Translations under genes and position numbers: made by a program
Shown here: piece by piece, positions 7,901 through 55,597 of the stretch
Numbering within the stretch: the stretch's first letter is position 1
Layout of the letters: every line of letters starts with the position of its first letter
Assembly (NCBI GenBank): GCA_003241475.1
Contig: QFQB01000001.1
Span: 24,997 to 88,996, forward strand
DNA: 64,000 nucleotides
DNA from: Micavibrio aeruginosavorus
GTDB taxonomy: Bacteria > Pseudomonadota > Alphaproteobacteria > Micavibrionales > Micavibrionaceae
Direction of reading: 5' to 3'
Notes under the pieces: generated by a model
What the model was told of the DNA's origin: nothing
Database searches by the model: none
Seen by the model: the letters and a program-made list of their open reading frames with translations, nothing else

Positions 7901-8515
7901 TACGCCATCACCATCTAAATCAACGTAATCGTTACAAGACGTTTCAAAGGTGCCATTCTTACCTGCGCTGATAACTGCGATCGCGGGCTGATCATCACGC
8001 GGCGCGCCGGTCAGCCTGTTCATAGAAGCGTCTGCAGGGACATCCGCGCATCCCGGCACTTCGTTTGCAGGAACGGAGTCGTGAATCGTGGTGACTGTGC
8101 CGGGATCCCAAACACAGTAGCCGTATTCTGTTCCCCAAGGATCGGAAACGCTTGTCCCCATCGTGTAAGGAATAAGTCCGCCGCCTGTGGGCACAGGTTT
8201 TGACCCCGGATCACGGTAAGGTAATCCTTCAACAAAGCCGTCGGAATCACAATCGCCGCCGTTCGTTTGCTGGGTGGTAGCGGATGCGATGGCCAGACGT
8301 GTTGAAGCCACAAGATTGTTTTGCGCGATAGTCGAACGGGTAATGTTGGCAGACGTTGCGCCGGGTCCTCGCAAAATCGTATTTAGTCCATAAGTAATGA
8401 CGCCCGCCATTCCGACAGCCGCGAACAGCATCAAGATAGCGTTACCGGCCTCACGACCCCGCTGTTTCTTTCTGTCTATCGCCGTGCTTACGGTCATGTT
8501 GCCATTATCATCCAT
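1907..8515 (-). CDS. giant modular surface protein 1 (pilin-like head, propeller-like repeats, 2 LamG, 2 RCC1 propellers)
   Basis: 2202-aa ORF; ATG 8513-8515 lies 1 nt from the stop of the upstream gene. Modules (aa): 1-45 basic N-terminus plus hydrophobic helix (AGNAILMLFAAVGMAGVITYG); 85-325 GspG-like head (DPWGTEYGYCVWDPG, IAVISAGKNG); 335-632 ~40-aa YVYA/AYSF-G repeats; 658-863 LamG (LVAHWKMDE...IDDVRVYSRALSPAEA); 885-1400 RCC1 x7 with a 170-aa insert; 1486-1699 LamG; 1738-1802 fibre-tip-like motif (MGIGTETPAVAVDVNG...GAVRYN..WQYCNGSAW); 1815-2202 RCC1 x7. Confidence 0.9.
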   Translation of the reverse strand: MDDNGNMTVSTAIDRKKQRGREAGNAILMLFAAVGMAGVITYGLNTILRGPGATSANITRSTIAQNNLVASTRLAIASATTQQTNGGDCDSDGFVEGLPYRDPGSKPVPTGGGLIPYTMGTSVSDPWGTEYGYCVWDPGTVTTIHDSVPANEVPGCADVPADASMNRLTGAPRDDQPAIAVISAGKNGTFETSCNDYVDLDGDGVPDSPMLNKPAGSDDIVLSYTYAEANGIGGGLWKINSADANSAQIDKNIESTSTGGASFDGAVNLTSQGIVLPPEGATGDCDTEAKNGQLRRNTTTTPPTIEMCDFANGNGWVGISGSGEAAPTDFRPELGNCTANRGGPFAAVGNLSPTTGIKDIWTRTGARNQDIYIASASDGIGIYNYDGTNLIEIDTIGGGSAGWSTLSGDDNYVYAGATTSGQRLVALSYNGSDLTQLDNEAFATNVNSVWSDGDYVYAAAAGGGLSAYSFNGTAFTLAGTHAGVNACSSWGDGTTLLLGDCAAAPAALGFNGSAFTVKATAGTNGGGKVTGNQDYYFTTNGSTLYAYGFTGGVLTMIDSEAVAANDIWSDGVNIFVAVNGGGINAYTFDGTTIALQETWSGTTSANAVWGDGNYIYVATENDGFYILSGYECSSPNPPGGYKVPTSTSGGQTLDDPLDDGLVAHWKMDEKTGTTFADSIGSHTATFLSSFEPHWASGPHGNGSLLFDKDDRTAAQATGLLDLSNQGTIAFWLNINSYDTNGVSLFSIGDIVMFSADTTFGLRMGYHHSGGWNQVPTNRELRGTGWHYVVGTFDSTNDRFRVYVDGMMAADVENTADVVWTGAGANTWFGRHGNGSTDWDLDGGIDDVRVYSRALSPAEAVQLSKVSMHEADVRQPIRSSPYIDTARGLLVAGENHTCIVKKEGEPWCWGRDNTGQLGNGSAVSDSVAPYPVAGISTDTYYLSTVASALTPAGWQLLMSPQATGSIVLTAINSYATSTFYAYTEAGSPGRDDGQGARTYTTTLNYTDTATADCVAVNAYAGRVNSGGTLQTEAQLGNTISLVGASQTFTGSVDLGTFASTDRLRLRYAMTNNCNSGSVVITLNTTSTVQTPAANYAGWSNISSYGGHSCGVRGDGNGFCWGSDSSGQLGNNTAISSTQETPSMVVSDGIPWSKIVAGADHSCGVKANGTLWCWGSEAQGQLGNGSTAATQAAPVQIGTATDWTDITAGYQFTCGIRSDGRAYCWGSDTSGKLGNGSSGSVSAPATVNDFGPWVNINAFENHACGIKADGSAWCWGAGAQGQLGNNTTTDAQSPSLVSLPGPWIDIRPGRYHTCGLRAEGDVYCWGQTADGKLGNSGTPSPLTSPLKVGSAGKAVAVAAGNSHSCAMKADNSVLCWGDDTYGQLGNGSVLTADQPAPSRVESIPNYPLWGWNDTFSTIIGPGMNVGIGANYLSPDGSATGFGFTAAGRAAVRESSAPSQLLLETTAATTSSQITFKTTADTTATDITDYVARWKLDESAGTASSDGGSYTGTLNNGTLWAPSDGRIDGAAIFDGVDDNITISSNVALQPADFTLSFWVNPTGTQAAGAKIIAKTYNSNASPIFNSYAASMTGQSGVVNFETGHTGTTDTLASGSRISNDSWTHVIMVYNPTNSLKKIYINGALSNSKTLATAVQYDNTANGSLYFGQNGAASPTQRFKGGLDSVRLYNRAFTDAEARQLYGFESSGFQIPRSFGIDHANSNLEIGRNNTAATNFMNVISSDLAIATDGKMGIGTETPAVAVDVNGAVRFGTDADCAAANTGAVRYNTSVTPPWQYCNGSAWTTLPTATSVIWKKYLGTFEALTNISCSIQPNGELYCWGKAEFGALGNFQSTTNSLNPTLVQTDSTSAGWADWSTVSTGRDYACGVRANGTAWCWGRANNGQLGDDQTSTDRTRPVQVKDTAGTGTWSDWTMVDAGEDHTCGLRRNGRAYCWGIGSFGKLGNGTIWSTYDTPSEVNTDSASPGWSDWVRVSASGTHGCGTRTNGTAWCWGTPFGGALGNNNDFTNQTRPVQVLNSSAGAGWADWTSAIAGNEFSCGLRVDGSAWCWGTGSSGRLGNGGTSNSNVPTQVKDGSGTYWYDWVQISPGYSHACGIRSNGTAWCWGNAANGRLGDGQTTTNRTEPVQVKDDAGTGTWSDWVAISAGSDYTCGTRVNGGMWCWGETNFGKNGDGQDTTDNQLPVRVELP
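1910..3073 (-). repeat. RCC1-like blade array, 7 blades, WSDW type (coding, C-terminus of giant protein 1)
   Basis: Seven ~52-aa units CG.R.NG.AWCWG....G.LG.G...RP.PVQVK....G.WSDW. On the plus strand each blade shows as ccccagcacca. Confidence 0.85.
4316..5863 (-). repeat. RCC1-like blade array, 7 blades, GPW type, with an insert after blade 1 (giant protein 1)
   Basis: PWCWGRDNTGQLGNGS (blade 1), then a non-RCC1 insert at aa 930-1095, then six blades (GFCWGSDSSGQLGNN ... VLCWGDDTYGQLGNGS). Confidence 0.8.
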
Positions 8516-8516
8516 T

Positions 8517-11500
8517 TTATAAAGTTACCCAAGCAGAACCATTGCAATATTGATAGGGTGTCGCACCACCGACATAGCGGATGGCACCCGTGCGCAAGAC
8601 GGTGCAGAGCAGGCTGTTATCGGCACCGATCTTCAGGCCGCCGTTGATTGTAAGTTTGTTTGGAATTGTACCGGAAGTCCCAACTCCAACACCTCCTGTT
8701 GTAGAAATTTCGACTTGTGGCGTAATAGCGTTCATATAGTTGGAGACGCCCGCATTATTTACGCCCAGTTCAAAGAAGGACGTTGTATAGTCAATGCCCG
8801 CGCTACGGGTCGCGCTGGCTGTTACCGTTTTCCAAGATAATTGCGCGGAAGCGTTTGTTCCCGCAGCCTGAAGCAACAATTCAGAACTTCCGGGGTTTTG
8901 CCGCAAGACAGAATTGCCGGCAGACGGGAAGGATAGGCCATTGCCCAGTGAAGAAATGGCAGTCGCATCGTAGCTGATGCCTGCAGATGTTCCCATGGAG
9001 ATATTCGATGCGCCCGCGGCGGACAAAGTCGTACCGTTGTCTGTCCATTGCCACGGTGAAATATTCGGAAAATTTTCAACTCTTGAAGGTATATGCATCG
9101 GGTCGGTCACGATCGCGGTCCCGTTGCCGAGTTCTCCGTTCGCATCCGTGCCCCAACACCACGCCGAACCGTCAGTTTTTAGGCCGCATGCTTTTTCTTT
9201 CCCTGCCACAATCGTGGCCCACGGTCCTGGATCCAGCACGCGGCTTGGAACCGGCATACTAGAGGTCAGCGTGTCTCCATTGCCGAGCTGGCCTTTGTCG
9301 TCTTCGCCCCAGCACCAAGCGGTCCCGTTCGTCTGCACGCCGCAAACGGTTCCGTCGGTCAGAGAAACGGAAACGTCGAGCCATGGCCCGGCGTTGGAAA
9401 CGGGGGCAGGAATAGAATAAAGCGTTGTGTTAATGGCGCCGTTACCGAGTTGTCCGAGTTCGTTTCGACCCCAACACCAAAGAGAGCCATCGAGCTTTAC
9501 TCCGCAAACCGATTCATAGCCGCGGCTGATCTGCACCCATGGCCCTGCGTCGGAGACTTTAAAGGGAGACACTTCATCCGTGCCGGTTGTGCTATTACCG
9601 AGCTGCCCGTAATTGTTACGCCCCCAGCACCACGCCGAACCATCCGATTTGATCCCGCACGAACCATCATAACCCGCGCTGATTTGCGTCCATGTGCTGG
9701 TTGAATCCACGGCGCTAGGCGCTTCTTGTGTGGCTGATCCAGCACCGTTGCCAAGGCGGCCGTTTGTATCTACGCCCCAGCACCAAGCGGTGCCGTCAGC
9801 CTTGATTCCGCAGGCATGTTCCGTTCCTGCTGAAACCTGTATCCATGGCCCCGTTCCGGAAAGGGAGCTTGGAGAAGTTTGGTCCGCGGTCAGCACAGCA
9901 CCGTTGCCAAGGCGCCCACCTGTGTCAGAGCCCCAACAGGAGATGGCACCGTTCGATTGTAGGCCGCAACTGAAATCGTCCCCCGTTGTTATCTGAACAT
10001 ATCCGGCCGTCCCGTTAACGCGGCTCGGTGAGGTTTTGTTGCCAGCGGCGCTACCATTGCCAAGCTGTCCATTATCGGCGGCGCCCCAACACCACGCCGT
10101 TCCATCCGGTTTGACCCCGCAACTGGAGGCTTCGCCTGTTGAAATACGGCCACGGTATTTATCAGCGGCAAGAACGGTGGCGGCCGATAGAGCGGTCGGC
10201 GTATCGCAAGCAAAACCGGTGAAGATATCGATCGGGTCGTTTTGGTATGTAACATACAGGTAACTACCGTCCGTGCGGAAGGCACGGACCTGATCTTCAA
10301 TCGGATAGGATGAAATCACTTTGAAGTTGCTACCATCAAAGCGCAAAGCCTGAATTTGTGTGCTTCCGTAGCCTGCAAAAATATTGACGCCGTCACCAAA
10401 TCCCCAACTTAGTGTTTGGCCGGAATTGTATGTGCCAGCCAGCGTGAGGGCTGTACCGTCAAAAGAATAGGCAAGCAAGTTGTTGGTTGCAATATAGATG
10501 TAATGACCATCTCCCCATGAAGCGCGCGTATCGCCGCCAGCGGGCGTGATTTGCGCGACTTGTGTGAAAGCGCTACCAGAGAAGGTCAGAACGTAAAAAC
10601 CGCCGTTACCGGCAGAGACATATATGTATGTGCCATCCGACCATATATTCGATGCCGTTCCCGCATTGTCGAAAGACCCTGCCAAGGTGAATGTGCCGCC
10701 GCTAAAGCTGTAAGCCCGGACAAAACCACTTTCGGCAACATAAACATAGCGACCGTCTCCCGTAACATCGAGGGCGGCAGAACCTGGTGCGATCTGACCT
10801 GTTTTTGTAAAGCTCGTTCCATCAAAGGAGTAAGCAAGCAGATCATCGCTTCCTTGCGCAACGAAAATGGTCGCGCCGTCGAAATATTGCCCATTGATTG
10901 TGTTGCCATCGACATCTTGCTCATTATCAAGTCGCGTCAGTGTTCCCGCGCCGCGCGCAAAAGCACTCAGGCCGTTATTGTATCCACCGACGTAGAGGTA
11001 ATCTTCGGTCATCAGCGGTGTGCGGTAATAAAATCCATTGTCGGATTGGCCGACCTTTGTGAAGGGCCCGCTACCGGCAGCCTTGCAGACATTCATTTCC
11101 TGATGAACACCCTGAGTATCGGACGCGACATCTTCTTCAATCGTTTGCCCATATGTGCCCTCGTAAAGTGCCACCATTTCATCTGCAGAGAGTGCACGAT
11201 TAAAGAAGCGGATATCGTCCATTTTGCCGTCGAATTTAAGCGAGCCGGAAACGGCGCTTCCGAACGTAAAATTATAAGGAAGGCCGGTCGCCGGTGGACC
11301 CACGGCTACACTACTTCTTTCGATCCCATCGACATAGGTGCGCAAGCGCGTTCCATCATAAGTACAGGCCACAAAATACCATTGGCCCGGTGTGACCGTA
11401 ACGCCAGATGGCCCGGTACCAAACCAATTCCCAGAAGAGGCTTCTTTTTGCTCGCATCCCAGCGGGCTTCCCCAGTCATGGCTCCAGTTAAAAGTTTTAT

Positions 11501-14375
11501 CATCGCTTCGATCATAAAGTTTGGTCGTTGTCGATGTAACGGGCGCCGTGTCGCCGTTGACCCACATGGAAATCGTATAGCGCGTTGCTTCCATAGTGAC
11601 GTCTTTTAAAACCTGTATATAGTTTGTTGCGTTCAGGTTAAGAGCAGTTCCATCCTGTCCAGGAGCAGACACGACACTACCGCCTCCCTCCCAGCTTCCA
11701 TCATTTCCACTGATTGAATCTTCAACGCTTGTTCCTGTTGTCTCGTCTAGTTTCCATCTATGGATCAGGCCGCCCGGCCCTGTTGTGGCGTTGGTTGAAA
11801 AGCGCCGCATGCAACGAATATATTGTGCGACCGGTTTTTGATCGCCCGTTGTCGATGTGGTCCCGTCCTGCATTTTTAAGCGGGCGATATTAAGCGGAGC
11901 ACCCGAGCTACCGGCTTCGGTTGAACTCGTGTAGAAAGAGCCGCTTGTCTCAAAGCCTCCAATCGCCACACGGTTCGGGTAAAAAATTGTGCTCATTTCA
12001 TTGATTGAGGGCAGGAACCAGTCTTCATAACCGCCAGAATTCAGATCACCACAAACTTGTGCGGCGCGATGTGGCTGGAACCCGGTCGTTACGCTATCGG
12101 AATCCGTCCCTTCCAGCGTTGTTGTGTTGGTCGTTCCATCGTCGTTGGTTGTTCCGCCCACATACACCGCACCGCTTGTATTCCCGAAGTTCCAAGGTCT
12201 TGTGCCGCGCGATCCTGTACAACTGGTACCGTTCCATGTCTGACCGAAATCGCAAGGCGTCGTATAATAGTAATATCCTCCGTATTCCCCCATGTAGACA
12301 TTGCCGTTGTTGCAATGATCTCCTATAGCGCTTGCGCCTGCACACAGGCCACTTTCATAAGCGAGCGCAGTGTTTTCGTCATTATAGATATCCATGACTT
12401 CTTCGGCAGAAAGACCGCGGCTGAAAATCATGACATCGTCGATGATGCCATCAAATTTCTCGTCCCCGTTACCCAGGGCGCCGAGACCCACGGCCTGGGA
12501 ATTTACGAGAGGTGTCATTTGCGACGAGGTCGTTTGTACAAGCTCGCCGTCGATATACATCTTCAAATCATTGCCGTCATATGTGCAGGTCAAAAGATAC
12601 CATGTGTCGGCAGGGAAGGCCGAACCGGCAGAAGGTGTGGCAATAAATCCTGAATCGCTACGGTATTCGCAAGCGACGGGCGTGAAGTGCGACCAGAACA
12701 TCGCATAGTTGGCCGTATTATAGGCGATGCCCTTGCCGACAATGCGTTCTACGCCGTTGTTAGGAAGTCCATGCGGTTTGATCCATGCCGATAGCGTGAA
12801 TCTTGTCAAATCGAGGTCGTTGTCGTCGGGAACGGAGACATAATTTGTTCCATTCAAATCGTAAGCGGTACCTTCGTGGCCACTTACCGAAACGACGGAA
12901 CCGCCGCCTTGCCAGCTTCCGTCATGATCGCCGATGGAATCTTCGGCGGCCGTTCCGGTCGTCTCATTCAGTTTCCAGCGACTGATGATTCCTTCGGGAG
13001 GCACGTAATTGGAAACAGATCCCCCCATCGATACGGCTTCCCAGTCGCTACCGCCGCCTGAGAAATCGCAGATGACAAGCACCGGCGGGCTAACGTCGTA
13101 ATTAATGCGAAGCTGTTGGTCCGTCGTCGCGTCGCAGGCATCAACATCGATATTGCCCGGTAGAATAAGACCGGCGTTTTCCAGCGCGAGCGGTCCCGCT
13201 AACGTCGCGCCGCCTGTAACATCGATCTCTTTTTCAATTGTGGCTGTGTCTTTAGAAACGTCCTTGATGCGCCAGAGATCGTTGCCGCTCAGACCGTTCG
13301 CCTCGTTGTAGGTATATTCCATGATAAGGTCGTCCGATCCGGCAGCACGATCGACCGGTGGGCCAGATGGCAGAGAAACCGTCGCATTTTTCTCACAAAC
13401 TGCGCGAAGGTTTGAATTGCAGTTTTCATCTATCCAGTTTCCCGAGCCATACCCGGAAGGGTGCGTGCCTGCGCAGTTTTCACCAGTTCCGCCATTTGGT
13501 TCCCCACTCTGCCAACTTGCGTAATTTCCGCCAAAAGCAGACCCATTCTGATCGCCCTGCCAGAATTGCGTTCCGGATTCCGGGCCTTGCGTCCATCGCC
13601 AAACGCCCTCAGAAGGATCATCTGTTCCTGCAATCCATGTCCAGTTAACGGTTGTAAGATTTGTGATCGCTACCTGTTCGGCCGCGGTCGTCAATGTTGC
13701 AAGATGATCGCCGCCAGCAGAAACACAAGAAGCGTTTGCGCCGGAAAAGTTTGTTGTATTGCTTGTCACAAAAAAACATTTTCCTGTAACAGGATCGTTA
13801 TAGTGATTGTCGCCAAGACCCGTACAATCTGCTGGCGTTGTTACGCCGCCACCTTGCGGGTTGCATTTTGTGCTGAATTGACGGTCTTTGCCGGCGCTGA
13901 TAACGGCAATTACGACATCTGTCGGCTGATCTGACCCTGTCAGCAGGTTTACACCCGCACCGCACGTTCCATTGCCCGGATTCCAGGCGCAGTAGCCGTA
14001 AGGCGTTCCCCACGGATCTTTTTCCGTGACGCCGATATCGTCAGGGAACCAGCCGCCGCCGTCTGGATGCGGCCCGGTAGCCGTTTTAAACGGTAGTGGT
14101 TCCATCATGTCCTGATCGTTGTTGGGCCCGAGCGTGTCTACATCGCAGCCGGCGGATTGCTGGATGGAAATCCGTCCGCCGGAATTCATCCGTTCTTCCG
14201 CAACGGATTTGCGTGTGACATCGGACATGGATGTGACAACGCCTTTGACGACATTGCCTGCGCCTACCGTGAAAACGCCGATCAGGGCGATCGAGGCGAA
14301 CAGCATGAAGAAGATATTTCCGGATTGCGATCCGGATCTTCGTCTCATCAATATGTATGGGCGCGGCATTATCAT
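8517..14375 (-). CDS. giant modular surface protein 2 (pilin-like head with inserted C-type lectin, 2 LamG, DUF1566-like, propeller-like repeats, 1 RCC1 propeller)
   Basis: 1952-aa ORF; ATG 14373-14375 overlaps the stop of the upstream gene (ATGA). Modules (aa): 1-45 anchor (SGNIFFMLFASIALIGVFTVG); 75-196 and 331-450 head (DPWGTPYGYCAWNPG, VIAVISAGKDRQF) split by a CTLD at 198-330; 463-665 LamG; 676-857 DUF1566/Lcl-like; 869-1072 LamG; 1100-1390 YVYV/AYSF-G repeats; 1405-1765 RCC1 x7; conserved linker. The protein ends with ...GAIRYVGGATPYQYCNGSAWVTL. Confidence 0.9.
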   Translation of the reverse strand: MIMPRPYILMRRRSGSQSGNIFFMLFASIALIGVFTVGAGNVVKGVVTSMSDVTRKSVAEERMNSGGRISIQQSAGCDVDTLGPNNDQDMMEPLPFKTATGPHPDGGGWFPDDIGVTEKDPWGTPYGYCAWNPGNGTCGAGVNLLTGSDQPTDVVIAVISAGKDRQFSTKCNPQGGGVTTPADCTGLGDNHYNDPVTGKCFFVTSNTTNFSGANASCVSAGGDHLATLTTAAEQVAITNLTTVNWTWIAGTDDPSEGVWRWTQGPESGTQFWQGDQNGSAFGGNYASWQSGEPNGGTGENCAGTHPSGYGSGNWIDENCNSNLRAVCEKNATVSLPSGPPVDRAAGSDDLIMEYTYNEANGLSGNDLWRIKDVSKDTATIEKEIDVTGGATLAGPLALENAGLILPGNIDVDACDATTDQQLRINYDVSPPVLVICDFSGGGSDWEAVSMGGSVSNYVPPEGIISRWKLNETTGTAAEDSIGDHDGSWQGGGSVVSVSGHEGTAYDLNGTNYVSVPDDNDLDLTRFTLSAWIKPHGLPNNGVERIVGKGIAYNTANYAMFWSHFTPVACEYRSDSGFIATPSAGSAFPADTWYLLTCTYDGNDLKMYIDGELVQTTSSQMTPLVNSQAVGLGALGNGDEKFDGIIDDVMIFSRGLSAEEVMDIYNDENTALAYESGLCAGASAIGDHCNNGNVYMGEYGGYYYYTTPCDFGQTWNGTSCTGSRGTRPWNFGNTSGAVYVGGTTNDDGTTNTTTLEGTDSDSVTTGFQPHRAAQVCGDLNSGGYEDWFLPSINEMSTIFYPNRVAIGGFETSGSFYTSSTEAGSSGAPLNIARLKMQDGTTSTTGDQKPVAQYIRCMRRFSTNATTGPGGLIHRWKLDETTGTSVEDSISGNDGSWEGGGSVVSAPGQDGTALNLNATNYIQVLKDVTMEATRYTISMWVNGDTAPVTSTTTKLYDRSDDKTFNWSHDWGSPLGCEQKEASSGNWFGTGPSGVTVTPGQWYFVACTYDGTRLRTYVDGIERSSVAVGPPATGLPYNFTFGSAVSGSLKFDGKMDDIRFFNRALSADEMVALYEGTYGQTIEEDVASDTQGVHQEMNVCKAAGSGPFTKVGQSDNGFYYRTPLMTEDYLYVGGYNNGLSAFARGAGTLTRLDNEQDVDGNTINGQYFDGATIFVAQGSDDLLAYSFDGTSFTKTGQIAPGSAALDVTGDGRYVYVAESGFVRAYSFSGGTFTLAGSFDNAGTASNIWSDGTYIYVSAGNGGFYVLTFSGSAFTQVAQITPAGGDTRASWGDGHYIYIATNNLLAYSFDGTALTLAGTYNSGQTLSWGFGDGVNIFAGYGSTQIQALRFDGSNFKVISSYPIEDQVRAFRTDGSYLYVTYQNDPIDIFTGFACDTPTALSAATVLAADKYRGRISTGEASSCGVKPDGTAWCWGAADNGQLGNGSAAGNKTSPSRVNGTAGYVQITTGDDFSCGLQSNGAISCWGSDTGGRLGNGAVLTADQTSPSSLSGTGPWIQVSAGTEHACGIKADGTAWCWGVDTNGRLGNGAGSATQEAPSAVDSTSTWTQISAGYDGSCGIKSDGSAWCWGRNNYGQLGNSTTGTDEVSPFKVSDAGPWVQISRGYESVCGVKLDGSLWCWGRNELGQLGNGAINTTLYSIPAPVSNAGPWLDVSVSLTDGTVCGVQTNGTAWCWGEDDKGQLGNGDTLTSSMPVPSRVLDPGPWATIVAGKEKACGLKTDGSAWCWGTDANGELGNGTAIVTDPMHIPSRVENFPNISPWQWTDNGTTLSAAGASNISMGTSAGISYDATAISSLGNGLSFPSAGNSVLRQNPGSSELLLQAAGTNASAQLSWKTVTASATRSAGIDYTTSFFELGVNNAGVSNYMNAITPQVEISTTGGVGVGTSGTIPNKLTINGGLKIGADNSLLCTVLRTGAIRYVGGATPYQYCNGSAWVTL
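9081..10163 (-). repeat. RCC1-like blade array, 7 blades, GPW type (giant protein 2)
   Basis: AWCWGAADNGQLGNGS, ISCWGSDTGGRLGNGA, AWCWGVDTNGRLGNGA, AWCWGRNNYGQLGNST, LWCWGRNELGQLGNGA, AWCWGEDDKGQLGNGD, AWCWGTDANGELGNGT. Confidence 0.85.
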
Positions 14376-17300
14376 TGGAACTGCACCTGCACGGGTATGG
14401 TGGACTGGCTTGTGCTGTTGTTGCCAAGGCGGCCGTTCGAGTTATTACCCCAGCACCATGTCGTGCCGCTTGAGCGAATGCCGCAAGTATGGGAATTACC
14501 GGCGATGACTTGAACCCAGTCATACCAGTAGCCAGTCCCTGCGCTGTCATAAACCTGAACTGGCAGAGATCTGTTCGTACCGGATGTACTGTCGCCCACC
14601 TGACCGTTGGCATTCAATCCCCAGCAATAGGCGCTACCATTTGCACGGATGCCGCACACCTGACCGCCGCCCGCACTAAGGCTCAACCAATCGGAGTAAG
14701 CGCTACCACCGCCGCTGTCTTTTACTTGTACCGGAAGCGATACGTTGTTTGTGGTCAGCCCGTCGCCACGCGAACCCCAGTTGTTGATGCCACCCCAGCA
14801 CCATGCCGTCCCATCTGCACGAATGCCGCAACTCATGCCTGCCCCAGCGGTAATCATTCGCCAATCGGTCCAGTTCCCGCCGCCACCGCTGTTCTTTACC
14901 TGAATGGGCAATGGGTTGTTCGTCGTAGCTGTTGTACCGTTCCCCAATTGTCCATTGGAGCCATTCCCCCAGCACCACGCCGATCCGTCAGTGCGGATAC
15001 CGCATGTTTGCTGATAATAGCCATACACGCTGGTCCAGTCCGACCATGTACCTGCACCACTACTATTTTTTACCTGTACAGGGCGAGCGTTAACGCTGGA
15101 TGTCGTGCCATTACCCATACTTCCATTCGTGTCCGTACCCCAGCACCAGAGTGTTCCGTTGCTACGCAAGCCACAGCTGTAATATCGAGCGATGCTTAGT
15201 TGCTTCCAATCAGACCAGTAACCTGCGCCGGACCCATCGCTGTTTTGAACCCTAACAGGTCTGCTTGAGGATGCTGATCCATTGTTTCCGAGCTGACTGT
15301 TCGTGCCTAGCCCCCAGCACCAAGTAGTGCCATCGGCACGAAGGCCGCACGCATGGTTGCCGCCGCTACCAACTTGTTTCCAATCCGACCATCCAGGTGT
15401 GCCTGTGCTGGTATGAACGGTAACGGCTTTGGTTGCATCGGGGGTTGTTGTTCCGTTTCCAAGTTCGCCATCTGCTGCGCGTCCCCAGCATTTTGCATAG
15501 CCATCAGACATGACGGCGCAACTGCCGTTCACTCCTGCAATATTGGCTTGGCTGTTGGTATTCATCAAGACGCTGGTTGTGGTCATCGTACCCCATGGTC
15601 TCCAGGAACCGCCACTACGGCAATATTGCCACGCGCTACCCGTCCATTGAATTGTTCCAACTTTGCCCGAAGTGCATCCACCGCCGTCATTGCCGATCTT
15701 GATCGCGCCGTTGACATCCAGTTTTGTAGCGGGCGCACCTTTTGTGCGGATGCCGACATTGCCTGTGCTACCAATTTCAAGATCAGGTTGCAGACTTGTC
15801 ACAAGGGCATCAGGGTTATTTGTCGTTCGGGAAATTTCGAACGATCCGGTATTATAATCGAGCCCTACTGAGCGGTTTGCGTAGAGTTGCGATGTGTTCT
15901 CGTAAACCTGTTGTATTTCCGAGGCGCTTAAAGCCCGGTTGTACATACGGACATCGTCCATTGCGCCATTAAACGGACTGGAGCCGTTCGATCCTGCGCC
16001 GATCCCCATATTAGAGGCAGCAGATACAGGAGTTCCGGCAGCAACACTGGAAACCTGATTTCCATCGATGTACATGCGCAAGGTGGTGCCGTCATAGGAG
16101 CAGACGATAAAATACCATTGGTTTGCGACCATATTGATCGGCATTACGGGCGAGGTTACGCGTCCTGACCCATCGTTTTGTTCACAAGTTATCGGATAAC
16201 CCCACTGGTGGCTCCAGTTGACCGAAAAGTTTTCGTTCCGGTCGAACATCTTGCTTGTAACGCTACCCGTGGTAGGCGCCGTATAGCCTTTTGCCCAGAA
16301 AGAAACCGTGTAAAGCGGCAAGTATAAGGACGCGTTATAGGTAACGAGAACAAATCCCGACGATCCGTTGAAGGATAGAGCGCCATTGTCTACACCAGTC
16401 GCAGGTGTCAGAACCCCGGACCATGCCCACCCACCGTCGGTTGTTCCGACAGAATCATCTACAAAGGTTCCATAAGTTTCATCCATCTTCCACCGATGCA
16501 CGAGGCCGCTCGTTACGTCGCCGGAAGCTGTTGCGGAAGCTACATTCAAGCGAATTTGGGATGCATAAGATGTGCCGCGGGCATCAAGAAGTAACTGGTT
16601 TGCCGTACTTTGTGTGATACTTGCCCCATCACTGCGCAGACGCAAGCCGGTCGATGTCCCATCACCGGATATATAACGCGTTGTTCCTATTATGGGGTTT
16701 AGATTCCACAAGGCGGATAAACCCGTGCTGGTTTCATTGGCATACCATGCGCTACGGGTGGGTGTGTCGAGAACCTTGCTTGGCAAAGTGGTAGATCCGA
16801 AAGATGAACCGTTTCCTAGCCGCCCGTTCGTATCCGTACCCCAGCACCATACATTTTCATTAACGTCGGTTGCGCAAGATGCGTTTATACCGGGTTGCGC
16901 GGTCATGAATTTTTGTGCACCCGTAACCCGCACAGGGATTTCTTGTGCTGCGACATTTAAACCATTGCCGATGCGGCCATTGTTACCCGCCCCCCAGCAC
17001 CACGCGCCGCCATAGATATCCGTGCCGCAATTATGCTCTACGCCAGCCGCAATAGACATGAAGGGTGCATTCGTGAAAGCCCTTACAGGAGATGTTTGGT
17101 CTTCAGTTATGTCGCTTCCATTGCCTATAAGACCATTTTCGTCTTTGCCCCAGCACCACACGCTTCCATCGTTTTTCAATCCGCAGGTAGCTTTGCCTGC
17201 AGATATTTTTGCCCATGGTCCGGGATCGTCTACTTGCGAAGGCGTATTTTGTGATGTGTTGAGAACGGCTCCATTGCCGAGCTGTCCGTTCGAATCAGAT

Positions 17301-20300
17301 CCCCAGCACCACGCAGTTCCGTCTTTTTTGATGCCGCAACTCGTGTCAGGCCCGGCAGAAATATCAATCCAAAGGTCATCGCCAGATACTTCAGCAGGCG
17401 AGGAGACGCTTCCGCCACCTGTGCCGAGTTTTCCATTCGAGTTCGATCCCCAGCACCATGCTGTACCATCGGTACGAATACCGCAGGCATGATCTGTTCC
17501 GACGGAAACTTTCGTCCACATAAGCTCATCATCCGCAACATCGACGGCAACAGGAGATGTTTGGTCGCCAGCCCCGCCAGCGCCAAGCTGTCCGTTTGAA
17601 TCAGAACCCCAGCACCACACGCTCCCGTCCGTTTTTAATCCGCAGGTCGAGGTAGAACCAAAGCCGGTAGAGATATCCAGCCAGGGTCCCGCATCACTCA
17701 CTGGACTGGGCTGTTGCTGACTACCGCTAACGGCACCGTTACCAAGTTGTCCGCTACCGTCTTCGCCCCAGCACCACGCAGTTCCGTCTTTTCGCACCAT
17801 ACAGGCATGCTTTTCGGCAGAAGCCAGTTTGACCGGCGCAATATTCGCGCTCGATAGATTTTCCTCACGTACATCAGCAAGAGCCGTTGTAAAAGAATCG
17901 CCTGCCGATACATCGACGTAGCCAAAGCCGTAAGCGCGGACAGGTATGGAACTAGTTCCTGTGTGATCGCCTTTGCCCAACTGGCCACTTGTGTTGCTTC
18001 CCCAGCACCAGATTTCGCCGCCCTTGCGCAAGCCGCAGGCATGGGTGTTGCCAACGGAGACTTTTACAAAATCCGTGATGTTGGAGACTTGTGTAGGACG
18101 AACCTGATCGCTGGTTCCGCCATTCCCGATTTGTCCGTCATCGCCATTCCCCCAGCACCAGATCGTACCAGTACCCCGCACCGCACAACCTTTGTTGCCA
18201 TTGGTGTCTATATCAACGAAATTAGGTTCATCATCATCGTAAACAGCAACGGGCGAATTCTCCTGACCGGTTGCCGTGTCGTTACCCAGGCTTCCGTCAA
18301 CGCCTTCACCCCAGCAATAAGCTTCGCCTGTTTTGGTAATTCCGCAGGCCTGGTTTCCCGCATTCCGTGAGGCCGTGATGGAGACAAAGTCCGTGATGTC
18401 AGACACGATGGCTGGCGTGCTTTGGTTTGCCGTAGATCCGTTGCCGATGACACCTTTCGATCCAGTACCCCAGCAGGCGGCTTCCCCACTTTGACGTACG
18501 CCGCAGGCAAAATTCACGCCCGTAGCGATATCAACGAAATCGGTGTAGGTAGAAACTTCTATAGGTGTAGCGCTGGTCGTAGCGCTTCCACCACCGAGAC
18601 CACCGCTACCGTTGCCCCAACAGTAAGCATGGCCGTTGCGTTTGATCGCACAAGTGCGGTTTGCACTGGCCGAAACTTTTGAAACATTCGACAATTCTTG
18701 AACCTGCACAGGAACGCTGATGCTTGCCGCAGTCGTTTCACCGTTACCAAGCTTGCCGTCTGTCTGGTCACCCCAGCACCAGACCGTTCCGCCCGCGCGA
18801 ACGCCACAAGCATGTTTGGTGCCGGCCGAAACCTGCACAAAATCATAAGCGGAGACAACCGGTTGCAGTCCGTCGTGCTCTTGGTATATCGGACCGTTAC
18901 CCGTGCGCTCATCATCATCGATTCCCCATGCCATTGCTTGCGCCGGACGTTTGGGGCGGCTGAGGCTGACATCCGAAGGGCGCGCCTCATTGTATAGATC
19001 ATTAATATCAGCCGCCGACATCGCGTAGTTATAAATGCGGACATCGTCGATCATTCCGCTCATATACGGCCCGCCTGTGCCGCCCGATCCAATAAAAACC
19101 TTGTCGTTAACAGTTTTGGAATAGGCGATAGCATCTGTAAGCGTTTTGCTGTCCGCTAATTGTCCGTTGATGTAGATTTTTTGTTGTGGCGCTGTGGCTG
19201 AAGGGCTGTAAACACCTACGACATGAACCCATTGACCGTCGCCAGCAGAGCTTGTACCGGACAAAGTGCTTGTCGCACTCGCGGTCCCAATGCCGAACGT
19301 CGGGTAGTAAGATGTTCCCGATTTTTCAAGCGTGAGCGCATAGCTGTAGTTGGGACTACATCCGCTACTACAGCTTTTTGCAACAATAGTCGTGGATGTT
19401 GCTGGTGATCCTGTGCGTTTTACCCATGCAACAACTGTTACCGCCGTTGGCTCTAGACTAGCGCTTCGTTCAACGCTGACATACTGGGAACTGGCGGACG
19501 TAAATTGAAGCGCATTGCCCAGATATCCTGTTGTCCAGGCTGGCGCGTTGACGAGTGTTCCATTGTTGTTGCCGCTGGAATCGGATGCACTTGTTCCGCC
19601 CGTTTCATCCATTTGCCAGTACGATACCAACGTTCCTGTGAGGCTTGCATTTCCGCCGCCACTTTCGCTGGATGTGCCCACGCCCGATAGCGGCGTCCAG
19701 CCCAGCGATTGATCGCAAATTTCAATTGTAGGCGGGTTTGTGCCGGTGTTACGGCGTATCTGCTTGTCATTAACCGTGGCACAAGCGCCGGTCAAAGAAT
19801 TGTCGCCGGGGTCTCCGGGCAAACGAAGGCCCCCACCAGTTAAACTGTTACCGGTAAGAACGACACCACCCGCGATGGTCCCGCCCTGCTTAACTTCGAG
19901 CCCCTTGGGTGTGACGGCGGTTCCGCTGTCGTTCGCTTTAGGCTTCCAAAGGCCCGCGCCAAGATCGTTTGCTTCTCTATAGCTGTAGGCAAGAACGATG
20001 TCGTCGCTTCCGGGCGTGCGTGTAATCAACGATGCGTTCGGTGTCAATGCGTTGAACGCAGTGCAACTTGTCTGAAATTTACGATCCTTCCCTGCACTGA
20101 TGAGTGCGATAACATATTGCTTTTGATCCGATCCGCCTTGCAGGCGCCCTGGCGTTGCGCCGCCGCAGGCCGCAACAGCATCGGAAACGGATATCGATCC
20201 GACATCCCAGGCGCAATACCCGTAGCGTGTATTCCATGGATCCTTGTCATCAGGAACAAGGCCTGTCGGAAGATAGCCGCCGCCCACAGGACTTTCTGCG

Positions 20301-20632
20301 CCGCCCGCATCCGTATAGGGAAGCGGTTCGATCGAACCGTCGCTGTCGCAATCGGAAATATCGGCGTTGGTCAGAGTGTCTTTTTGCTGTGTCGCATTGA
20401 CGATGGCGAGACGCGAAGTCGTGATGACCGTATTTTCGGCCAGCGTTTTGCGCGTGACTTCCGTCATCGTGCTCATCGGGCCGCGCAAGACGCTGTTGAA
20501 TCCGTATCCTACCGCGCCGACCATGGCGAGGGCGGCAAAAAGCGCGAAGAAAATATTCCCCGCGTTGCGTGCAGGAGGATTGGATTCGCGTACCAAAGCA
20601 TGGATGTCTTTGTGCGCGAAGTATTTTTTCAT
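14372..20632 (-). CDS. giant modular surface protein 3 (pilin-like head, 2 LamG, 3 RCC1 propellers)
   Basis: The ORF track (14372..20704) begins at a TTG. The first ATG (20630-20632, MKKYFAHKD...) leaves 24 aa before the GN-hydrophobic anchor, as in protein 1. Modules (aa numbered from 20704): 47-75 anchor (AGNIFFALFAALAMVGAVGYG); 115-345 head (DPWNTRYGYCAWDVG, VIALISAGKDRKF); 358-572 LamG; 615-945 RCC1 x6; 955-1312 RCC1 x7; linker; 1400-1602 LamG; 1638-1704 fibre-tip-like motif; 1715-2110 RCC1 x7. Confidence 0.85.
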   Translation of the reverse strand: MKKYFAHKDIHALVRESNPPARNAGNIFFALFAALAMVGAVGYGFNSVLRGPMSTMTEVTRKTLAENTVITTSRLAIVNATQQKDTLTNADISDCDSDGSIEPLPYTDAGGAESPVGGGYLPTGLVPDDKDPWNTRYGYCAWDVGSISVSDAVAACGGATPGRLQGGSDQKQYVIALISAGKDRKFQTSCTAFNALTPNASLITRTPGSDDIVLAYSYREANDLGAGLWKPKANDSGTAVTPKGLEVKQGGTIAGGVVLTGNSLTGGGLRLPGDPGDNSLTGACATVNDKQIRRNTGTNPPTIEICDQSLGWTPLSGVGTSSESGGGNASLTGTLVSYWQMDETGGTSASDSSGNNNGTLVNAPAWTTGYLGNALQFTSASSQYVSVERSASLEPTAVTVVAWVKRTGSPATSTTIVAKSCSSGCSPNYSYALTLEKSGTSYYPTFGIGTASATSTLSGTSSAGDGQWVHVVGVYSPSATAPQQKIYINGQLADSKTLTDAIAYSKTVNDKVFIGSGGTGGPYMSGMIDDVRIYNYAMSAADINDLYNEARPSDVSLSRPKRPAQAMAWGIDDDERTGNGPIYQEHDGLQPVVSAYDFVQVSAGTKHACGVRAGGTVWCWGDQTDGKLGNGETTAASISVPVQVQELSNVSKVSASANRTCAIKRNGHAYCWGNGSGGLGGGSATTSATPIEVSTYTDFVDIATGVNFACGVRQSGEAACWGTGSKGVIGNGSTANQSTPAIVSDITDFVSITASRNAGNQACGITKTGEAYCWGEGVDGSLGNDTATGQENSPVAVYDDDEPNFVDIDTNGNKGCAVRGTGTIWCWGNGDDGQIGNGGTSDQVRPTQVSNITDFVKVSVGNTHACGLRKGGEIWCWGSNTSGQLGKGDHTGTSSIPVRAYGFGYVDVSAGDSFTTALADVREENLSSANIAPVKLASAEKHACMVRKDGTAWCWGEDGSGQLGNGAVSGSQQQPSPVSDAGPWLDISTGFGSTSTCGLKTDGSVWCWGSDSNGQLGAGGAGDQTSPVAVDVADDELMWTKVSVGTDHACGIRTDGTAWCWGSNSNGKLGTGGGSVSSPAEVSGDDLWIDISAGPDTSCGIKKDGTAWCWGSDSNGQLGNGAVLNTSQNTPSQVDDPGPWAKISAGKATCGLKNDGSVWCWGKDENGLIGNGSDITEDQTSPVRAFTNAPFMSIAAGVEHNCGTDIYGGAWCWGAGNNGRIGNGLNVAAQEIPVRVTGAQKFMTAQPGINASCATDVNENVWCWGTDTNGRLGNGSSFGSTTLPSKVLDTPTRSAWYANETSTGLSALWNLNPIIGTTRYISGDGTSTGLRLRSDGASITQSTANQLLLDARGTSYASQIRLNVASATASGDVTSGLVHRWKMDETYGTFVDDSVGTTDGGWAWSGVLTPATGVDNGALSFNGSSGFVLVTYNASLYLPLYTVSFWAKGYTAPTTGSVTSKMFDRNENFSVNWSHQWGYPITCEQNDGSGRVTSPVMPINMVANQWYFIVCSYDGTTLRMYIDGNQVSSVAAGTPVSAASNMGIGAGSNGSSPFNGAMDDVRMYNRALSASEIQQVYENTSQLYANRSVGLDYNTGSFEISRTTNNPDALVTSLQPDLEIGSTGNVGIRTKGAPATKLDVNGAIKIGNDGGGCTSGKVGTIQWTGSAWQYCRSGGSWRPWGTMTTTSVLMNTNSQANIAGVNGSCAVMSDGYAKCWGRAADGELGNGTTTPDATKAVTVHTSTGTPGWSDWKQVGSGGNHACGLRADGTTWCWGLGTNSQLGNNGSASSSRPVRVQNSDGSGAGYWSDWKQLSIARYYSCGLRSNGTLWCWGTDTNGSMGNGTTSSVNARPVQVKNSSGAGTWSDWTSVYGYYQQTCGIRTDGSAWCWGNGSNGQLGNGTTATTNNPLPIQVKNSGGGGNWTDWRMITAGAGMSCGIRADGTAWCWGGINNWGSRGDGLTTNNVSLPVQVKDSGGGSAYSDWLSLSAGGGQVCGIRANGSAYCWGLNANGQVGDSTSGTNRSLPVQVYDSAGTGYWYDWVQVIAGNSHTCGIRSSGTTWCWGNNSNGRLGNNSTSQSTIPVQVQFQ
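14375..15562 (-). repeat. RCC1-like blade array, 7 blades, WSDW type (C-terminus of giant protein 3)
   Basis: AKCWGRAADGELGNG ... TWCWGNNSNGRLGNN with PVQVK(N/D) and (W/Y)SDW spacers. Codons for C-W-G checked at 15482-15490. Confidence 0.85.
16769..17842 (-). repeat. RCC1-like blade array, 7 blades, GPW type (giant protein 3)
   Basis: AWCWGEDGSGQLGNGA through VWCWGTDTNGRLGNGS, with spacers GPWLDIS and GPWAKIS. Confidence 0.85.
17870..18862 (-). repeat. RCC1-like blade array, 6 blades, TDFV type (giant protein 3)
   Basis: VWCWGDQTDGKLGNGE, AYCWGNGSGGLGGGS, AACWGTGSKGVIGNGS, AYCWGEGVDGSLGNDT, IWCWGNGDDGQIGNGG, IWCWGSNTSGQLGKGD, with spacers (I/Y)TDFV. Confidence 0.8.
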
Positions 20633-20850
20633 AAAGCGTAGCAATGACAAACCCCAGCGAGCCGCCCCCTTCAAGCCGCGAATGGTTCGGACAAAATACC
20701 CCAACCTTTATTATCCGGCCTGAACGGTTAAAAACCGCTAAAATTTTAACTATTTAAGGATTGCGGGCGCAACCCATTGTAAGAGAACAAAAATATGAAA
20801 TCATTCACAGAACGATACACAGCCCTCTCATGCTACTAGAGAAAGGGGGG

Positions 20851-20885
20851 TTCGAAAAGAGGCGTTTGTACAAAAAACGCCCCCC
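20851..20885 (-). terminator. putative intrinsic terminator downstream of secB
   Basis: Minus strand reads GGCGTTT-TTTGTAC-AAACGCC (7-bp stem, 20861-20881) followed by TCTTTTCGAA, 25 nt after the secB stop. Confidence 0.45.
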
Positions 20886-20905
20886 GCTACTGGAGAAAAG
20901 AGGCC

Positions 20906-55594: not shown

Positions 55595-55597
55595 CCT

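Follow-up and report, generated by a model that had tools for sequence, protein, structure and literature searches.

Three tandem giant proteins begin with a common head

Three tandem giant open reading frames (ORFs) lie on the minus strand at positions 1907-20632 of the window, the whole 64,000-nucleotide stretch of DNA analyzed here, in a Micavibrio-like predatory bacterium. A reading of the sequence alone had proposed that the N-terminal regions of their products, here called heads, are GspG-type pilin or pseudopilin domains with a noncanonical leader.

Protein A (14372..20632; 2,086 aa from ATG 20632) consists of the head, a Cys mini-module, LamG, RCC1 propellers, LamG, a Cys mini-module, and RCC1. 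Protein B (8517..14375; 1,952 aa) has a head with a lectin insert, two LamG domains, an Lcl_C-like domain, RCC1, and a C-terminal Cys mini-module, and protein C (1907..8515; 2,202 aa) has the head, a Cys mini-module, a repeat region, LamG, RCC1, LamG, a Cys mini-module, and RCC1. The B start overlaps the A stop in ATGA, and the C start follows the B stop by 2 nt. The longest A ORF reaches upstream to TTG 20704, and a clear Shine-Dalgarno sequence is absent at both candidate starts; ATG 20632 appears likelier because the leader is then 25 aa long, as in homologues. The secB-A intergenic region spans 20633..20905, and since a terminator-like hairpin (20897-20880) lies on the 3' side of secB, the three genes probably form a single operon with its own promoter. 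The Cys-bridged mini-module of A, CATVNDKQIRRNTGTNPPTIEICDQSLGW, is about 30 aa long (19697..19783) and has a second copy at aa 1653-1680. Its first copy is the end of the region that the sequence-only reading had called the head.

The heads of A, B, and C show 42 to 46% pairwise identity and a common layout, all on the minus strand: a basic leader up to an invariant Gly, 24 hydrophobic residues, K/R-G-P, a long helix, and a globule. The three-element N terminus described earlier was found in the translated ORFs with every element in its place. In A, the hydrophilic and basic leader (aa 1-25; 20558..20632) ends in ARNAG, with G25 as position -1, and the hydrophobic tract N26-L49, NIFFALFAALAMVGAVGYGFNSVL (+1 to +24; 20486..20557), with Gly at +14 and no Glu at +5, is followed by R50-G51-P52. 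The B leader (aa 1-19; 14319-14375) ends in SQSG and its tract covers aa 20-43 (14247-14318), with SGNIFFMLFA at the junction; the C leader (8444-8515) ends in REAG, followed by its tract (8372-8443), with AGNAILMLFA at the junction. AF2 predicted one helix of about 60 residues and then a beta-rich globule (trimmed head model, pLDDT 82.8, pTM 0.79). The predicted A helix (aa 27-86; 20375..20554) covers the tract and its amphipathic continuation, and the A globule (aa 87-235; 19928..20374) has a pLDDT of 85 to 96 over most of its length.

The globule contains Cys residues, DPWxxxYGYC, and ISAGK(D/N). In A, these motifs are DPWNTRYGYCAWDVG (aa 131-145; 20198-20242) and VIALISAGKD (aa 174-183; 20084-20113), and the globule also holds a DxDxDG loop (DCDSDG), GSDDIVLAYSYREAN, and LWKPK. 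The B motifs, DPWGTPYGYCAWNPG (13974-14018) and VIAVISAGKD (13884-13913), lie upstream of a C-type lectin domain (Pfam Lectin_C; aa 208-329; 13389..13754) inserted in a head loop between the FSTKC strand and GSDDLIMEYTYNEAN. The B head does resume after this insert, as had been proposed, from GSDDLIMEYTYNEAN (13296-13340) to LWRIK (13254..13388). The C head (aa 1-243; 7787..8515) has DPWGTEYGYCVWDPG (8099-8143) and AIAVISAGKN (7955-7984), so the earlier pattern (V/I)IA(V/L)ISAGK(D/N) fits A and B and is off in C by its first residue, a trivial deviation. In the alignment of the heads, numerous Cys, Asp, Gly, Pro, and Trp residues are invariant.

The head defines a family with exchangeable cargo

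An exhaustive HMMER profile search returned 1,046 cluster representatives at an E value of ≤1e-3 and 682 at ≤1e-30. E values were as low as 1e-99, and the likeness of the A, B, and C heads is therefore far beyond chance. The head was N-terminal in the best 150 of the 1,046 representatives, in proteins of 217 to 3,280 aa. Scanning genomes turned up 194 relatives, in Micavibrio metagenome-assembled genomes (MAGs), Hyphomicrobium, Methylobacterium, Stappia, Nitratireductor, and Stella, and heads from different alphaproteobacterial orders are 35 to 60% identical while joined to unrelated cargo. This head of about 235 residues defines a large alphaproteobacterial family, which so far lacks annotation. 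The family also occurs in nonpredatory Alphaproteobacteria.

The cargo includes S74 tail-fiber ends, PilV tip-adhesin domains, lectins, LamG, and RCC1. Among 52 midsize members, Peptidase_S74 formed the C-terminal end of 16, and a Shufflon_N (PilV) domain occurred in 5; other trimeric tail-fiber modules were Gp34_trimer, BclA_C, and C1q. Over its last 160 aa, P0020 matches PilV, the tip adhesin of IncI pili, in 2,619 plasmids. A cargo-free member fit to be a major subunit was not found, and the short matches look like fragments. In Alphaproteobacteria, this one head type is joined to hundreds of distinct adhesin cargoes. That the heads make up a large modular family whose commonest cargo is trimeric and tail-fiber-like lay outside the view of the sequence-only reading.

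The head N terminus resembles a prepilin signal

Position statistics came from 63 distinct heads, numbered from the start of the tract (+1) with the invariant Gly at -1. Before the Gly, -3 was Q/E in 50 and -2 was S/R/A in 57; after it, +1 was N in 55 and S in 8. Within the tract, +14 was Gly in 59 heads, +17 was Gly in 51, and +19 was A/G/T/S in 59, and the tract was followed by K/R at +25 (59 heads), Gly at +26 (62), and Pro at +27 (58). The absence of Glu at +5, noted earlier for the three proteins, extended to all 63. Counting back 25 residues from K/R-G-P reached a Gly in about 44 of 45 anchorable family members, independently of the Gly alignment, and rows anchored in this way had no indels in the tract. 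The leader measured to the nearest Met was mostly 5 to 30 aa in the distinct heads. Conservation of the hydrophobic block was 0.59, compared to 0.61 to 0.71 for the best globular blocks, a degree that, judged from the alignment, is unlike ordinary signal peptides. These sequence features support a class III (prepilin) signal layout for the head N termini. In the same alignment, +14 to +19 (G-x-x-G-x-[AGST]) also suit a signal peptidase I site, and cleavage after the conserved Gly is therefore one reading among others. The pLDDT drops to about 59 at +17 to +26.

The head is built like a pilin yet fails formal pilin tests

Aligning the head profile with the GspG profile in hhalign gave a P value of 2.4e-4 over DPW..Y.Y and ISAGxD, with a score of 31.8 compared to a mean of 12.8 (standard deviation, 2.6; maximum, 24.8) for 200 column shuffles. 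From these profiles, the DPWxxxYxY likeness to GspG is statistically real. The label "GspG-type" was nevertheless an overstatement: the match exceeds all 200 shuffles, but the alignable stretch covers 10 to 34 columns, down to 10 with the deeper alignment, and the T2SSG model does not match. The N_methyl, T2SSG, TadE, and Tad models of Pfam and NCBIfam had no match to the heads even at an E value of ≤10. A head profile search retrieved no pilin among PDB sequences, and hhalign found no match between the head and the PilV pilin module. AF2 predicted a helix followed by beta strands. In Foldseek, the trimmed model had no pilin among the 17 matches listed at an E value of ≤10, and both head models had no match of any kind at an E value of <1 and no pilin at ≤10. 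The head has the build of a type IV pilin but fails these tests; the pilin reading is only partly supported.

Pilus machinery near the head genes

Canonical prepilin, Flp, and TadE signals were absent from the window and from 1.18 Mb of flanks at 81 related loci, and neither the window nor those loci had a consistently linked GspE/PilB-type ATPase beside the head genes. This flank search was directed at pilin signals and GspE/PilB-type ATPases. Recurrent neighbor clusters are, as far as annotated, housekeeping genes. The claim that the window has no pilus assembly gene holds for these signals and for the ORFs in the Pfam scan (37 of 41 of at least 90 aa, leaving out 32713-33063, 48117-48416, 62717-63019, and 63138-63797), except that a GspE/PilB-superfamily ATPase is encoded at 46948-48117. 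Its context is Dot/Icm-type (type IVB secretion), with TraI/DotC, DotI, DotH, and a TrbI/DotG-like protein. For M. aeruginosavorus ARL-13, reported machinery comprises pil genes at dispersed sites, eight proteins with a prepilin signal, Flp, and a type II secretion system (T2SS) without annotated GspC/G/H/K.

Comparison with known systems

The precedents invoked earlier proved sound: tip subunits without Glu5 are established (PMC10191384), and modular pilins bearing lectin and S74 modules are known (PMC8179133). The modules that Raynaud et al. list for canonical modular pilins include the InterPro peptidase-activity entry IPR030392. Like Streptococcus sanguinis PilB/PilC, enterotoxigenic Escherichia coli (ETEC) CofB, Vibrio cholerae TcpB, and IncI R64 PilV, the heads are small N-terminal carriers with a short leader up to a Gly, about 21 to 24 hydrophobic residues, and a long helix, followed by bulky adhesin modules (ConA-like lectin, S74, and others). 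We take IPR030392 in the list to be the S74 domain. PilV's own domain occurs in some head family members, and their trimeric cargo recalls the trimeric CofB (PMC8179133). Unlike these pilins, the heads lack Glu5, have Asn/Ser at +1, match no N_methyl or IPR012902-type model, have a globule of about 150 residues without a Foldseek match to solved pilins, and are not linked to pilus genes; their cargo reaches 2,000 to 3,000 aa, compared to 860 aa for the largest modular pilin in the list of Raynaud et al.

The leader terminus (Q/E)(R/S)G and L/V-G14-V-L within the tract resemble PulG/GspG sequences taken from the PDB. GspG likewise has DPWxxxYxY directly before a beta strand, followed by a hydrophobic strand with S-x-G-x-D at its end. 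Like the heads, the GspK cap lacks Glu5 and has a domain inserted in its pilin module, as the lectin is in the B head loop. Unlike GspG, the heads have no match to PF08334 (10 to 34 columns align), an alpha-beta loop of about 50 residues, about 28 residues inserted between the two strands, and, elsewhere in the domain, additional strands, four conserved Cys residues, and a DxDxDG loop, and their genes lack the gsp operon context of T2SS pseudopilins.

Tad pili and CpaA/TadV peptidases occur widely in Alphaproteobacteria, the hosts of the head family, and TadG-like N termini also have basic residues, then G-(N/S), and then hydrophobic residues. In contrast to Tad pseudopilins and TadG-like proteins (PF07811, PF13400), the heads have no hidden Markov model (HMM) match at an E value of ≤10, lack the Glu at +5 of TadE/TadF, and have no TadE-type signal in the window or the 81 loci.

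The mosaic adhesive trimeric (MAT) fibers of the predator Bdellovibrio bacteriovorus are alike in architecture: they are encoded by several genes, their invariant N-terminal domain lacks a PDB homologue, and their C-terminal adhesive tips, many with a terminal S74 chaperone, are exchangeable. In MAT proteins, an ordinary signal peptide precedes a beta-rich domain about 130 aa long, whereas the heads combine a conserved 24-residue hydrophobic helix bounded by Gly with a long helix and a different domain of about 150 aa, in a family present in nonpredators too.

Possible roles of the head

We tentatively read the head as most likely a divergent, Glu5-less type IV pilin-like module carrying adhesin cargo. 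The class III-like signal, the helix-then-beta fold, the GspG motif, the cargo in common with PilV, and the machinery reported for ARL-13 support this reading. The basic leader would hold the N terminus in the cytoplasm while the 24-residue helix enters the inner membrane, leaving the remainder outside, and a prepilin-type peptidase would cleave after the invariant Gly. Lacking Glu5, the subunit could sit only at the far end of a type IV filament, whether a type IV pilus (T4P), T2SS pseudopilus, or Tad pilus, by analogy with the GspK/PilK caps, CofB/TcpB, and R64 PilV. A trimer at the tip is conceivable because most family cargoes are trimeric fiber modules. The displayed LamG, C-type lectin, and RCC1 propellers, and the tail-fiber tips of relatives, may bind glycans or proteins of prey or other surfaces, with specificity diversified by tandem paralogues and free cargo swapping; the cargo domains are observed matches, and the variable architectures are the observed basis for the swapping. 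Against this reading, the pilin models and structure searches gave no match, no candidate for a cargo-free major subunit was found, about 2,000 aa of folded cargo would need to pass through a secretin, +14 to +19 suit a signal peptidase I c-region, and +1 is Asn/Ser.

A serious rival, possible if somewhat doubtful, is a conserved Sec signal peptide with a cell surface anchor domain as in MAT fibers, without a pilus. The tract would be the h-region, signal peptidase I would cut after G17-x-[AGST]19, and the helix-plus-beta head would bind an envelope component and hold a mostly trimeric fiber on the predator surface. The residues at +14 (Gly, a helix breaker, at -6), +17 (Gly, -3), and +19 (-1) follow the -3/-1 rule, and the AF2 confidence dip falls at +17 to +26, but the predicted helix runs unbroken through the putative site. 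The mostly trimeric tail-fiber cargo (S74, Gp34_trimer, BclA_C, C1q) and the order of signal peptide, conserved N domain without a PDB homologue, and variable tips, some bearing S74 and some not, match the MAT proteins of a predator; the Foldseek result without pilins and the 81 loci without canonical pilin signals or a consistently linked pilus-type ATPase also suit this rival. However, the h-region would be unusually conserved, with a length fixed across members of <50% identity, the invariant Gly and the conserved Q/E and S/R before the tract serve nothing in a Sec signal, and outer membrane crossing is left without explanation.

An uncleaved signal anchor is unlikely. Three tracts would bundle in the inner membrane via small-xx-small stripes (G8, A11, G14, G17), with the long helix as a stalk, and the tethered fiber would act in the periplasm or at a specialized contact site. 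The 24-residue length of the tract is usual for a transmembrane helix, basic residues lie on its N-terminal side, small residues recur at every third tract position, the amphipathic helix has heptad-like spacing (read by eye from the A sequence), and the cargo is trimeric. Yet the lectin, LamG, RCC1, PilV-like, and tail-fiber cargo is typical of extracellularly exposed proteins, prey beyond the outer membrane would be out of reach, and the conserved -1 Gly and short leader have no explanation here.

It is very improbable that the heads are mere conserved 5' ends of recently duplicated paralogues with only export in common and DPW as a chance echo: A, B, and C are tandem paralogues and the alignable GspG stretch is very short, but this explanation is largely refuted by the breadth of the family (1,046 representatives and 194 genome relatives), with its 35 to 60% identity across orders despite unrelated cargo, its many invariant residues, and a confident AF2 fold.

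A constant head on three giant adhesins

Genes A (14372 to 20632 or to 20704), B (8517 to 14375), and C (1907 to 8515) are very long open reading frames (ORFs) of the minus strand. They are arranged head to tail, with the stop of A overlapped by the start of B and only 2 nt between the stop of B and the start of C, and a terminator-like hairpin lies 3' of secB, the gene upstream of A. Because of these tight junctions and the hairpin, the three genes probably form a single operon with its own promoter. The flanking genes, secB-fxsA-Tim44-mltA and dnaQ-coaE-aroE, make up a housekeeping neighborhood. Exact look-up identified B as PZQ49099.1 and C as PZQ49098.1, with annotations as hypothetical, LamG, or lectin proteins. 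The Pfam domains in the giants are LamG, RCC1 propellers, a C-type lectin, and an Lcl_C-like region, while the first 235 to 330 residues had no Pfam or NCBIfam match.

The heads, the N-terminal modules of about 235 residues, show 42 to 46% pairwise identity among A, B, and C. All of the head motifs listed in the sequence-only reading were found in place in the three translated ORFs. That reading also held that the head of B resumes past a lectin insert, and this is borne out: the C-type lectin of B is inserted in a head loop, after which the head sequence picks up again. Past each head is a Cys-bridged mini-module of about 30 aa (minus strand, 19697 to 19783, 13041 to 13136, and 7568 to 7663), with a second copy near each C terminus (A, aa 1653 to 1680; B, aa 1924 to 1949; C, aa 1773 to 1799). 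Its pattern is C-x5-9-G-x-(I/L)-(R/Y)-(R/Y)-N-x5-9-(E/Q)-(I/Y)-C-(D/N)-G-x-W, for which we know of no family name. Three proteins without a head, encoded downstream of the head gene in the related locus L001, carry the same mini-module after their signal peptide.

The head family and its cargo

A word-indexed search recovered 7 and later 22 relatives of the head. With a profile built from 9 sequences, an exhaustive HMMER run returned 1046 cluster representatives at an E value of ≤1e-3 and 682 at ≤1e-30, and scanning a single genome of each species yielded 194 relatives. The hosts include many Micavibrio metagenome-assembled genomes, Hyphomicrobium, Methylobacterium, Stappia, Nitratireductor, Stella, and others. 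Among the 1046, the head was N-terminal in all of the 150 best matches that were listed, in proteins of 217 to 3280 aa.

The cargo, the part of the protein C-terminal to the head, is strongly variable. Among 52 mid-size members, the Peptidase_S74 tail-fiber chaperone forms the C-terminal end in 16; Lcl_C is present in 6, Shufflon_N (PilV) in 5, and RCC1 in 3, and Gly_rich_2, LamG, Gp34_trimer, BclA_C, and C1q also occur. PHROGs confirmed the presence of tail-fiber-like cargo and contained no match for the head itself. In one family member (P0020), the C-terminal 160 aa match PilV, annotated as the pilus tip adhesin of IncI-type plasmids, in 2619 records. From this breadth and variability, we conclude that the window giants are large lectin/propeller variants of a constant-head family with swappable, mostly trimeric cargo. 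We looked for a cargo-free head that might serve as a major subunit, but no member was convincing: the short matches (217 to 301 aa) stop abruptly and look like contig-end fragments. A 207-aa protein in locus L059 (1309 to 1932, minus strand), divergent from the head gene, has a head-related N terminus, QRG/NVLFLILIAVALFAALSYAV; it is a lone example with no counterpart in the window or the other loci and therefore does not argue for a matching major subunit.

One head-family gene (L003, 8446 to 9618) shares its plasmid-like contig with genes for a relaxase, ParA, an EcoRII-type restriction enzyme, a DNA methylase, and Vsr, so the family can be mobile. Its called start is too far downstream, and the frame extends upstream through ...CRG/SVFFALFGAV. 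In Alphaproteobacteria other than Micavibrio, the immediate upstream neighbor of the head gene is a divergently transcribed gene for a serine recombinase of about 190 to 260 aa. The recombinase-head intergenic region (L027, 9589 to 9740; L072, 9628 to 9785; L020, 8256 to 8421; also L025, L034, and L075) carries inverted repeats 124 to 130 nt apart in three loci, an arrangement that looks like an invertible promoter acting as an on/off switch for the adhesin.

The signal-like N terminus of the head

We numbered the N terminus from the first residue after the conserved Gly, which is thus -1. A logo of 63 distinct heads showed Q/E at -3 in 50 and S/R/A at -2 in 57. Position +1 is Asn in 55 heads and Ser in the other 8, and at +5 one of the residues A, M, T, L, and I occurs in 60 heads and Glu in none; the sequence-only reading had likewise noted the missing Glu. 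Within the hydrophobic tract, Gly is found at +14 (59/63) and +17 (51/63), and the tract is followed by K/R at +25 (59/63), Gly at +26 (62/63), and Pro at +27 (58/63). Gly is present at -1 in 63/63 heads, but the search pattern itself required it. Because that Gly was built into the first pattern, we re-anchored 52 further family members on K/R-G-P as an independent test, stepping back a fixed distance. Of the 45 members in which this anchor could be placed, about 44 had Gly at -1, and in the anchored rows the tract is a fixed, indel-free 24 residues. The leader, measured from the nearest Met, is mostly 5 to 30 aa long. In conservation the hydrophobic tract equals the best blocks of the globule: pairwise column identity is 0.59 in the tract, compared with 0.61 in DCDxDG, 0.71 in DPW..YGYC, and 0.65 in ISAG.

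By the textbook definition (PMC8179133), a class III signal has a hydrophilic leader with Gly as its last residue, then about 21 hydrophobic residues, within a long alpha-1 helix. The heads fit this layout with a short hydrophilic leader that ends in Gly, a 24-residue hydrophobic tract, and a long predicted helix. Moreover, the leader end (Q/E)(S/R)G and the tract center V/L-G14-V-L resemble GspG/PulG sequences from the PDB. The heads lack the Glu at +5 of type IV pilins, which among known filaments is absent only from cap subunits. Tip subunits had been cited as precedent for this lack, correctly so for the cap subunits of type IV filaments (PMC10191384).

Comparison with pilin, GspG, and Tad families

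No head matched the prepilin N-terminal methylation models PF07963 and TIGR02532 in Pfam-A plus NCBIfam at an E value of ≤10, and the T2SSG model PF08334 was unmatched by the heads in the Pfam search. The G-N/S start prompted us to consider a TadG/TadE-like N terminus, but none of nine heads matched the Tad models PF07811 and PF13400 at an E value of ≤10. Searching PDB sequences with the head profile returned no pilin and no GspG, only spurious membrane-protein matches.

The heads do carry a counterpart of the GspG signature of DPWGxxYxY plus a strand-loop with a hydrophobic-S-x-G-x-D-G pattern. When we aligned the head and GspG profiles with hhalign, 34 columns covering DPW..Y.Y and the ISAGxD strand gave a P value of 2.4e-4, and the score of 31.8 exceeded those of all 200 column shuffles (mean, 12.8; standard deviation, 2.6; maximum, 24.8). 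This alignment shrank to 10 columns with a deeper, 25-sequence alignment. The earlier description of the head as GspG type thus holds for a short DPW/ISAGxD motif but not for PF08334, the PDB profile search, or Foldseek. The pilin module of genuine PilV showed no similarity to the head in hhalign, and it is the adhesin domain that PilV, a true tip pilin, has in common with some head-family members. Canonical modular pilins are also known to carry lectin modules, as the head proteins do, and a peptidase entry, IPR030392, which we take to be S74.

Predicted fold

AlphaFold2 (AF2) with the 25-sequence alignment predicted a single helix (residues 27 to 86) followed by five or six strands (138 to 144, 164 to 166, 173 to 179, 188 to 190, 203 to 205, and 212 to 217) and a short helix. 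The pLDDT was 85 to 96 in the globule and only about 59 across +17 to +26. A trimmed model of residues 47 to 235 had a pLDDT of 82.8 and a pTM of 0.79. In GspG crystal structures, a strand begins directly past DPWxxxY, and in the head model strand onset is likewise immediately past DPWxxxY.

The sequence-only reading had proposed a pilin or pseudopilin fold, to be checked with Foldseek, and that match did not appear. Neither the 335-aa model nor the trimmed 189-aa model had any PDB match at an E value of <1 or any pilin at ≤10, and the trimmed model had no match in BFVD below an E value of 1. By these models, the head is a confidently predicted domain without a detectable structural relative, which makes it a sensible choice for structural work and for a new Pfam entry.

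What kind of carrier is the head?

The most fitting description of the head is that of a new carrier, so far without annotation, that combines a class III-like signal with a short GspG-like motif. On present evidence, it acts as a modular tip pilin would, with membership in any pilin family not demonstrable. The pilin-head interpretation therefore survives in part: the class III-like signal, the GspG-like motif, and the PilV-type cargo speak for it, but the family, PDB, and Foldseek tests do not. That every profile and fold test failed speaks against the head being simply a member of a known pilin family. We tentatively lean toward a divergent, Glu5-less pilin-like carrier, to which we give somewhat less than an even chance.

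The chief rival, which we take seriously but rate somewhat lower, is a conserved Sec signal followed by an anchor domain. The G14...G17-x-[AGST]19 arrangement is compatible with signal peptidase I under the helix-breaker and -3/-1 rules, and AF2 confidence falls at this point. The trimeric tail-fiber cargo would also suit a surface fiber like the mosaic adhesive trimeric (MAT) fibers of Bdellovibrio, which have a signal peptide, a conserved N-domain without a PDB homologue, and variable tips that may or may not include S74 (PMC10769870). The head family has the same architecture of a conserved N-domain, a trimeric fiber, and a variable tip (S74 in 16/52 members; Gp34_trimer, BclA_C, or C1q in others), a likeness we treat as analogy only. 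This cargo fits a CofB/TcpB/PilV-like trimeric tip subunit or a MAT-type fiber equally well. A plain signal peptide, however, accounts poorly for the fixed length and high conservation of the tract, for the invariant Gly with conserved neighbors that precedes it, and for the predicted helix, which runs on through it. We consider an uncleaved membrane tether improbable and leave what weight remains to other readings.

A more specific proposal, which we regard as doubtful, is that the head represents a type IV filament subunit of a new class, with a non-canonical Gly/Asn signal, forming a trimeric pilus or pseudopilus cap that carries swappable tips and giant lectin/RCC1 adhesins. If so, a class III signal lacking Glu5 has been overlooked by current pilin detectors, the Micavibrio heads would belong to the prey-recognition apparatus of an epibiotic predator, and they might act as the cap for a T2SS-like machine without annotated GspK/GspG. 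More generally, were the head pilin type, the modular pilin catalogue, built as it is on the canonical N-terminal motif, would be missing at least a thousand protein clusters. Known cargo size would grow more than twofold, from 860 aa to 2000 to 3000 aa, and how such a cargo passes a secretin would become the question. Under either leading reading, the head family comprises candidate prey-recognition adhesins of Micavibrio-type predators and would be the second independent case, after Bdellovibrio MAT fibers, of a constant anchor with swappable tips.

Genomic neighborhood and machinery

Regular expressions for canonical prepilin, Flp, and TadE signals found none, either across the window or in the 1.18 Mb surrounding head genes in 81 loci, and a Walker A expression found no GspE-type ATPase consistently adjoining head genes in related loci. 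The claim that the window contains no pilus assembly gene thus stands for these signals, but the window does hold a DotB/TraJ-like ATPase. M. aeruginosavorus ARL-13 has reported pil genes, eight prepilin-signal proteins, and Flp, and its T2SS was reported without annotated GspC/G/H/K.

Clustering of the 81 loci showed that recurrent neighbors are housekeeping genes (secB, fxsA, Tim44, mltA, and dnaQ; ubiB and gapR; an ABC-F gene), and head genes occupy a few conserved insertion sites (secB/dnaQ, downstream of ubiB, and near the ABC-F gene). A possible head-DotI linkage proved to be only synteny with a solitary DotI-like gene in the ubiB/gapR neighborhood, with no secretion cluster.

The window has type IVB secretion genes (Dot/Icm or IncI-like) at 46124 to 48416 (plus strand; TraI/DotC-like, the DotB/TraJ-like ATPase, and a 99-aa ORF) and at 59232 to 62760 (plus strand; DotI/IcmL, DotH/IcmK, and TrbI/DotG-like). 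The ARL-13 genome paper reported no type IV secretion system. Upstream of dotI-dotH-dotG and divergent from it, 53250 to 59052 (minus strand) encodes three paralogues of 607, 448, and 702 aa, with a 184-aa ORF in between. These have hydrophobic, signal-like N termini and no Pfam match, and they share LPALMLMAEQLT...LDAKHQLETQRLFQ...AHKDYHPSE.MCTFGT. A 414-aa ORF at 33524 to 34768 likewise had no Pfam match.

A two-partner secretion pair adjoins the giant-gene locus (24781 to 30543, minus strand, and 30929 to 32665, plus strand) and is kept in the closest relatives, L004 to L008. The TpsA-like partner, of 1920 aa with beta-helix repeats, was assigned by visual inspection of its sequence together with the identity of its TpsB partner, a ShlB/FhaC-type transporter. 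In the secB locus, a Wzy_C (O-antigen-ligase-like) gene lies a few kilobases from the head genes (L001, 5171 to 6406; L002, 4863 to 6116); the PilO/PglL-type pilin glycosylases are members of the Wzy_C family.
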